NCBI RefSeq assembly: GCF_057098645.1
Contig: NZ_CM169472.1
Length of the DNA stretch: 64,000 nucleotides
Reading direction: 5' to 3' (one strand)
Of the stretch, positions 1 to 2,085 are shown piece by piece. The notes beneath the pieces are model-generated. The model did not search any database, was not told the DNA's origin, and saw only the letters and a list, made by a program, of their open reading frames with translations. A program made the position numbers and the translations under genes. The number at the start of each line of letters is the position of its first letter. Position 1 is the stretch's first letter.

Positions 1-1134
1 TCTGGGCCGATTTTTTTCCCGCAAACACATCGAATCAGCCTATTTAGGCTATTTTTTCCACCATTTCTGGCGTTATTTCCGGTTTTTACTGAGATCTCTC
101 CCACTGACGTATCATTTGGTCCACCCGAAACAGGTTGGCCAGGGTGAATAACATCGCCAGTTGGTTATCGTTTTTCAGCAGCCCCTTGTATCTGGCTTTC
201 ACGAAGCCGAACTGCCGCTTGATGATGCGAAACGGGTGCTCCACCCTGGCACGGATGCTGGCTTTCATGTATTCGATGTTGATGGCCGTTTTGTTCTTGC
301 GCGGATGCTGCTTCAAGGTTTTTACCTTGCCGGGACGCTCGGCGATCAGCCAGTCCACATCCACCTCGGCCAGCTCCTCGCGCTGTGGCGCTCCTTGGTA
401 GCCGGCATCGGCTGAGACAAATTGCTCCTCTCCATGAAGCAGATTACCCAGCTGATTGAGGTCATGCTCGTTGGCCGCGGTGGTGACTAGGCTGTGGGTC
501 AGGCCACTCTTGGCATCGACACCAATGTGGGCCTTCATGCCAAAGTGCCACTGATTGCCTTTCTTGGTCTGATGCATCTCCGGATCGCGTTGCTGCTCTT
601 TGTTCTTGGTAGAGCTGGGTGCCTCAATGATGGTGGCATCCACCAAAGTGCCTTGGGTCATCATGACGCCTGCTTCGGCCAGCCAGCGATTGATGGTCTT
701 GAACAATTGACGGGCCAGTTGATGCTGCTCGAGCAGGTGGCGGAAATTCATGATGGTGGTGCGATCCGGCAGGGCGCTATCCAGAGATAATCGGGCAAAC
801 AGGCGCATGGAGGCGATTTCGTACAGGGCATCTTCCATGGCACCGTCGCTCAGGTTGTACCAATGCTGCATGCAGTGAATACGCAGCATGGTCTCCAGCG
901 GATAGGGCCGTCGGCCATTGCCCGCCTTGGGATAAAACGGCTCGATGACAGCGGTCATATTCTGCCATGGCAGAATCTGCTCCATGCGGGAGAGGAAAAT
1001 CTCTTTTCGGGTCTGACGGCGCTTAGTGCTGAATTCACTATCGGCGAAGGTGAGTTGATGGCTCATGATGTCCCTCTGGGATGCGCTCCGGATGAATATG
1101 ATGATCTCATATCAGGAACTTGTTCGCACCTTCC
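1..1134 (-). mobile_element. IS5: IS5 insertion sequence, partial (window begins inside the element); terminal inverted repeat GGAAGGTGCGAACAAG ends at 1134, followed by CTAA target site
   Basis: Terminal IR recognised by sequence at 1119-1134 (reverse complement); internal ORF is the IS5 transposase; about 1134 of the roughly 1195 bp element is inside the window. Confidence 0.9.
86..1066 (-). CDS. insH: IS5 transposase InsH
   Basis: 326 aa ORF, recognised as the IS5 transposase ([35 protein letters not shown]...). Confidence 0.92.
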
Positions 1135-2085
1135 CTAAGCAATGCTGAGTCTCTACAACGCCAGGAGTTAAGCGACAATTTTCATACCATTAAAAAGAAC
1201 TGGCATCGTTTAATGAATCGTCAGCGGTGGCTTGATTACTGGCAGAATATTTATTCGCGCTCGCTTAGCGTTCTTCCCTACTTTCTGTTATTGCCGCAGT
1301 TTATTAGCGGGCAGATCAATCTGGGCGGACTGATGAAATCGCGCCAGGCATTTATGCTGGTATCGAACAATTTAAGCTGGTTTATTTATAAATATGATGA
1401 ACTTGCTGAACTGGCTGCGGTTATCGATCGCTTGTATGAGTTCCATCAACTCACCGAACAGCGCCCTACGAATAAGCCTAAAAATTGCCAACATGCGGTA
1501 CAAGTGGCTGACGCGAGTATTCGTACCCCTGATAATAAGATCATATTAGAGAACCTGAACTTTCATGTTCCGCCAGGCAAATGGCTATTACTGAAAGGTT
1601 ACTCTGGTGCGGGAAAAACCACACTGCTTAAAACATTATCTCACTGCTGGCCGTGGTTTAAAGGTGATATTTCTTCTCCTGCTGACAGTTGGTATGTGTC
1701 ACAAACACCGTTAATCAAAACCGGCTTACTGAAAGAGATTATTTGTAAAGCACTTCCCCTGCCCGTAGACGATAAATCGTTGAGCGAAGTACTGCATCAG
1801 GTTGGTCTGGGGAAATTTGCTGCGCGTATTCATGACCACGATCGCTGGGGAGATATTCTTTCCAGCGGCGAAAAACAACGTATCGCCCTGGCACGATTAA
1901 TTTTACGACGTCCGAAATGGATATTTCTTGACGAAACTACCTCTCATCTTGAGGAACAAGAGGCTATCCGCTTACTGCGTTTAGTGCGTGAAAAACTACC
2001 CACAAGCGGCGTCATTATGGTTACACATCAACCCGGTGTCTGGAACCTGGCCGATGATATTTGTGACATTAGCGCGGTTTTATAA
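1135..2085 (+). pseudogene. yddA: 3' fragment of ABC transporter ATP-binding/permease gene yddA, truncated by the IS5 insertion
   Basis: Frame is open from the IS5 end; encodes only the C-terminal ABC ATPase domain (Walker A GYSGAGKTT, signature LSSGEKQR, Walker B IFLDETTS); first 5 codons of the tracked ORF lie in the IS5 end. Confidence 0.8.

Follow-up and report, generated by a model that had tools for sequence, protein, structure and literature searches.

Probable recent splitting of yddA by an ISKpn26 insertion in an Escherichia coli strain of the O145:H28 lineage

The stretch of DNA analysed here, 64,000 nucleotides in length and referred to as the window, opens inside a copy of the insertion sequence ISKpn26 and passes directly from the end of this element into the 3′ part of yddA. 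We consider it very likely (probability of about 0.88) that the insertion of ISKpn26 has split yddA in an E. coli strain belonging to the O145:H28 lineage, that this event is recent, and that it probably exerts a polar effect on the downstream genes yddB and pqqL. In the proposed course of events, a copy of ISKpn26 would have transposed into a single CTAA tetranucleotide (nucleotides 736–739 of yddA), leaving the transposase gene antisense to yddA and the latter divided at codon 246, within the part that encodes the transmembrane domain. The predicted N-terminal product, encoded outside the window, would consist of 245 YddA residues followed by a 16-residue tail supplied by the IS, while the C-terminal product would be a fragment with neither promoter nor start of its own (window 1135–2085).

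Positions 1–1134 of the window (minus strand) correspond to nucleotides 63–1196 of ISKpn26, a 1196-bp member of the IS5 group within the IS5 family, the full length of the element and the phase of the window being taken from the full copies in E. coli strain ET474 and in the Logan assembly SRR31184552. Over all 1134 nucleotides the sequence is 100% identical to many ISKpn26 copies annotated in RefSeq, both chromosomal and plasmid-borne. The identity to the K-12 IS5 amounts to 92.2%, with 88 differences in 1134 nucleotides that are concentrated at both ends of the element. In ISfinder, elements with less than 95% nucleotide identity are counted as different. On the basis of these identities (100% versus 92.2%, below the 95% required of IS5 proper), the window element is assigned to ISKpn26 and not to IS5 proper. 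The original prediction of an IS5 copy with an inverted repeat ending at 1134 next to a CTAA is thus right in its coordinates and in the family, but not in the name of the element.

The transposase gene (86–1066, minus strand) is intact and encodes 326 amino acids. Its product matches the IS5-family profile NF033581 with 367 bits (cutoff 140) and the Pfam domains DDE_Tnp_1 (1.6e-35) and DUF772, as expected of an IS5-type DDE transposase. The transposase-proximal terminal inverted repeat, GGAAGGTGCGAACAAGT, was located by motif match at 1118–1134 (minus strand) and occurs once in the window, compared to 0.17 occurrences expected by chance; it represents the one end of the element, with its IS5-family terminal repeat of about 16 bp (GGAAGGTGCGAAYAAG), that the window contains. 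The other 62 nucleotides of ISKpn26, the second inverted repeat, and the left junction all lie before position 1, and identical copies found elsewhere at full length do have this second repeat. Immediately downstream of the repeat, the CTAA at 1135–1138 (plus strand) is the right-hand copy of a presumed 4-bp target-site duplication and coincides with nucleotides 736–739 of yddA. ISKpn26 is very common on enterobacterial plasmids, which are its typical location in Klebsiella and other Enterobacterales. Among the best 5000 plasmid matches to the window IS sequence, 2399 are from Klebsiella, and a copy in the chromosome of an O145:H28-type strain may reflect an earlier encounter with plasmids that carry it.

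Two further features of the element can be mentioned here. An ORF of 91 codons (863–1138, plus strand) runs antisense to the start of the transposase gene and exits through the inverted repeat, its stop codon being the TAA of the CTAA target; small antisense ORFs have been described for IS5. A weak terminator-like hairpin at 37–60 (plus strand), composed of AGCCTATTTAGGCT and then ATTTTTTCC, faces transcription that arrives in the IS from the 5′ side of yddA. Hairpins of this type are no more numerous in the region than in shuffled sequence.

The reading frame that crosses the junction (1120–2085, plus strand) is chimeric. Its first five codons, TTG TTC GCA CCT TCC (MFAPS, 1120–1134), lie wholly within the IS end, which bears out the earlier statement that they are not a native start. 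From 1135 onward, the nucleotide sequence is identical to O145:H28 yddA and the translation matches exactly codons 246–561 of the intact 561-residue O145:H28 YddA, followed by the stop codon (1135–2085, plus strand). The insertion point is thus codon 246 and the remnant accounts for 56% of the protein. The intact YddA, with 6TQE as its nearest solved structure (E = 2e-66), has its membrane domain at residues 28–350 and its ATPase domain at 383–515 according to Pfam, so that the break falls within the former. Of the 315 positions of the SbmA_BacA profile, the remnant retains 213–312; it thus keeps the final ~100 transmembrane-domain residues but not the complete N-terminal transmembrane domain. 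The ABC ATPase domain is complete (ABC_tran, 2.6e-19), and the Walker A (GYSGAGKT), signature (LSSGEKQR), and Walker B (IFLDE) motifs can be read in the translation. The description of the remnant as only the C-terminal ATPase half hence holds as regards the continuation of the frame, but falls short as regards the content. A consensus scan upstream of the ORF on the plus strand found neither a good ribosome-binding site nor a promoter-like site. A functional YddA half-transporter is impossible from the split gene, and ORF 1120–2085 is not to be annotated as a gene. The expectation that yddA is probably inactivated is in agreement with these results, since the IS interrupts a gene that runs uninterrupted over 561 codons in O145:H28.

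The remainder of the window (1135–64000) is collinear with, and 99.9–100% identical to, complete O145:H28 genomes in all of the 25-kb stretches tested. The intact yddA of these genomes contains a single CTAA at nucleotides 736–739, exactly where the IS abuts in the window. Between 1135 and ~10500, the sole differences from most of the O145:H28-lineage loci compared are at positions 6024 and 7239, both in pqqL and both synonymous (CCT vs CCA and TTA vs TTG, respectively). Judged by these two positions, the source would be a slightly divergent member of the O145:H28 lineage. As the downstream genes show no decay and the inspected complete genomes of the lineage are without the insertion, we infer that the insertion is recent. 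The O145-like yddA has also been broken in other ways, namely by an IS66-family element (CP168984.1, locus L014, about 2807–5241), by the nonsense mutation W281* (G to A at gene nucleotide 843) in two assemblies (L023 and L024), and by Q255* (C to T at gene nucleotide 763) in one assembly (L025). These are independent inactivations of the O145-type allele.

The same CTAA has been used repeatedly in E. coli. IS-bearing alleles at nucleotides 736–739 were found on at least 10 yddA haplotypes, with variation that extends right up to the junction, and the inserted elements comprise canonical ISKpn26, IS5, two reciprocal IS5/ISKpn26 hybrids, and a 109-bp miniature element. Because both the haplotypes and the IS variants differ, the sister alleles represent independent events; on the same grounds, we reject the idea that they all go back to one ancestral insertion passed on by descent or recombination. 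Both orientations occur, the chimeric proteins of the opposite orientation being found in 88 and 42 assembly-index blocks. An apparent orientation bias, whereby the early matches all had the transposase antisense, proved to be an artefact of a search that joins same-strand pieces only; in explicit look-ups, the opposite-orientation chimeras are commoner than those with the antisense transposase.

The elements at this site display some variation of their own. In strain ApSLC23 (locus L001), the element at 5006–6200 is a mosaic that resembles IS5 at the end away from the transposase start and ISKpn26 over the rest, and that of strain ET474 (5005–6200) is the reverse mosaic. The ApSLC23 locus has flanks identical to those of locus L021 and differs from it at the IS end away from the transposase start, a difference suggestive of gene conversion with another IS copy once the element was in place. 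In strain 24AR0357 (NZ_CP195351.1, locus L041), a miniature element of 109 bp without transposase (2701–2809, ends GGAAGGTGCGAATAAGT...ACTTATTCGCACCTTCC) carries IS5-type terminal inverted repeats and occupies the same CTAA, which is duplicated around it. This element is apparently a non-autonomous derivative of the IS5 group with the same target.

Elsewhere in yddA, complete genomes contain IS5-group insertions at nucleotides 485, 866, 905, 958, and 1147 (loci L005, L004, L040, L038, and L039, respectively), all with a CTAR/YTAG duplication. The site at 485 (TTAG) is likewise a recurrent target, one exact chimera being present in 28 contigs, a count that, like the other contig counts used here, includes clonal duplicates. 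Exact chimera look-ups at eight other CTAA/TTAG sites in yddA, including nucleotide 187, found none, with longer exact matches being demanded at the sites beyond nucleotide 739, and none of the 16 TTAA sites in the gene is used by IS5-group elements. The 8-mer context gcgCTAAgc was considered as the cause of the preference and rejected, since the same context at nucleotide 187 is unused. From these counts, which concern the sites in yddA alone, we lean slightly toward regarding CTAA 736–739, and to a lesser degree TTAG 485, as a real hot spot of IS5-group elements in E. coli that seems not to have been described before. In the searchable literature, yddA in combination with IS5 or ISKpn26 returned nothing relevant, the sole match being a same-named gene of the F plasmid, and no description of such a hot spot was found. 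If it is real, the Fus-like YddA-YddB-PqqL uptake system would be recurrently switched off by transposition, and a local determinant of IS5-group targeting could be mapped at yddA. The recurrent site thus offers a small, checkable lead on how IS5-group elements choose their targets.

That the window derives from a simple insertion is concluded by analogy with other assemblies, the left IS end and the 5′ half of yddA being situated outside the window. The same right junction, together with the 5′ half of yddA and CTAA on both sides, is found in NZ_CM196105.1 (strain ApSLC23), NZ_CP100954.1 (strain ET474, locus L002), and SRR31184552 (locus L017), while five draft contigs (L018–L022) end just inside the IS, after nucleotides 1–739 of yddA. 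The 5′ half of the gene lies beyond the IS in every isolate assembly found to have this junction, and the predicted chimeric protein, YddA 1–245 followed by LRKVRISRSFLPKLTR, is present verbatim in public assemblies. The best identity to the junction that megablast found among 5,426 complete E. coli genomes was 99.0%, an exact scan for the junction in the GTDB species representatives gave 0 matches, and the proteins of the possible C-terminal ORF calls, like YddB, had exact matches in other strains only. A simple insertion would predict the 62 nucleotides of ISKpn26 upstream of the window, preceded by ...GAACTGATTGCGCTAA of yddA, so that the sequence just before position 1 would read ...GCGCTAA and then GGAAGGTGCGAATAAGC; the missing 62 nucleotides of the element are expected as GGAAGGTGCGAATAAGCAGGTCATTTC..., with ...CAGGCAGAACTGATTGCGCTAA of yddA before them.

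We have also considered the alternative that recombination between two ISKpn26 copies, or an IS-mediated deletion adjacent to the element, removed or moved the 5′ half of yddA and left unrelated DNA to the left of the element. The left junction is not visible in the window, and many E. coli genomes carry ISKpn26 in multiple copies, at up to 40 or more places in a single record. A metagenome contig (locus L026, ENA ERZ27297801 k141_175008) moreover joins the same right junction to a left flank of 51 nucleotides (1–51, …GTCCGCTCTAA) that is not yddA. However, this contig comes from a short-read metagenome assembly, where joins that span repeats cannot be relied on, and carries a different, hybrid variant of the IS. 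A repeat-induced mis-join is at least as likely in this contig as a real IS-mediated rearrangement. As all isolate assemblies with the junction carry the 5′ half of yddA and the CTAA duplication, and the rest of the window is collinear with O145:H28, we regard such a rearrangement as improbable in the present strain. It is more improbable still, to the point of hardly deserving consideration, that the junction is an assembly artefact caused by a mis-join at the repeat. The window does start inside a repeat element, but 1134 nucleotides of the IS run without a break into unique sequence. At the junction, the IS terminus and a canonical CTAA target meet to the exact base, and the identical junction was assembled independently in several genomes, including long-read complete ones. 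The simple insertion of ISKpn26 into yddA is accordingly the reading that we retain.

The genes downstream of the split are intact. Separated from yddA by 37 nucleotides, yddB (2123–4495, plus strand) encodes a TonB-dependent receptor of 790 amino acids with a Plug domain, homologous to FusA and identical as a protein to that of O145:H28, and it is followed by pqqL (4540–7335, plus strand; RefSeq start 4552), which encodes a periplasmic M16 metalloprotease homologous to FusC. YddB, PqqL, and YddA have been described as homologues of FusA, FusC, and FusD (PMC5095587). It has been shown by RT-PCR that yddA-yddB-pqqL form one transcript, and the same study describes a Fur box that overlaps the start codon of yddA, the de-repression of yddABpqqL in a fur mutant, and a role of yddB and pqqL as fitness factors in systemic UPEC infection (PMC3855560). 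In O145:H28, the Fur box is found at the start of yddA, upstream of the IS position, and is absent from the window. The IS would thus now separate yddB-pqqL from their only documented promoter, and translation of the truncated yddA would stop 16 codons into the element, leaving more than 1.1 kb untranslated. Given the single Fur-regulated transcript (PMC3855560), a polar reduction of the intact yddB and pqqL is plausible on the published operon structure. Weak promoter-like sites on the plus strand are present inside yddA and just before yddB, in a number no higher than in shuffled sequence.

A different view of the same insertion is that it is regulatory or adaptive, either because transcription that exits the IS at its transposase-proximal end, or the loss of Fur control, would make yddB-pqqL independent of iron, or because the loss of YddA itself has been selected. 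IS5-group elements strike yddA repeatedly, at six sites, the O145-like gene has further been broken by the IS66-family element and, independently of each other, by W281* and Q255*, yddB and pqqL remain intact in the window, and the ORF at 863–1138 reads out through the IS end, all of which would be consistent with such a role. On the other hand, the consensus scan found no plus-strand promoter-like site in the last 400 nucleotides of the IS, so that an outward promoter in the IS end is unsupported, and the occurrence of both orientations at nucleotides 736–739 speaks against orientation-dependent activation. The focus on 2 of the 10 equivalent tetranucleotides, furthermore, points to a target preference rather than to selection for gene loss. 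We therefore consider a regulatory or adaptive insertion unlikely, and prefer to view the ISKpn26 insertion as a disruption of yddA with plausible polarity on yddB-pqqL.

In itself, the event is an ordinary pseudogenisation of yddA by an IS, of a kind already known, since equivalent alleles are already annotated in RefSeq. For the strain, it means the loss of the YddA part of a Fur-regulated, Fus-like import system. The main use of the present analysis lies in the correct annotation of the locus, with the name ISKpn26 in place of IS5 and no gene at 1120–2085.

The comparison with known systems can be made at three levels. With respect to the element, the window copy shares with ISKpn26 the 326-aa DDE transposase, the terminal repeat (GGAAGGTGCGAA...), and the CTAA target, and exhibits no detectable difference from it over the 1134 nucleotides present. 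The IS5 of K-12 (insH copies) belongs to the same family and has the same terminal repeats and 4-bp CTAR/YTAG target duplication and a similar length (1195 vs 1196 bp), while it is named separately from ISKpn26 in the RefSeq annotation. With respect to the allele, the insertions in ApSLC23, ET474, and SRR31184552 have the same nucleotide position, orientation, and CTAA duplication as that in the window, and RefSeq represents the two yddA halves of these sister alleles as pseudogene fragments that flank an IS5-like transposase. They reside, however, on other yddA haplotypes, with a flank divergence of 1–1.5%, and the IS variant differs in two of them. With respect to the locus, the gene order, the intact yddB and pqqL, and the domain architecture of YddA are those of the Fus-like, protease-associated import locus yddABpqqL, whereas in the window strain yddA is split and 1.2 kb of IS would lie between the Fur-box promoter and yddB-pqqL.
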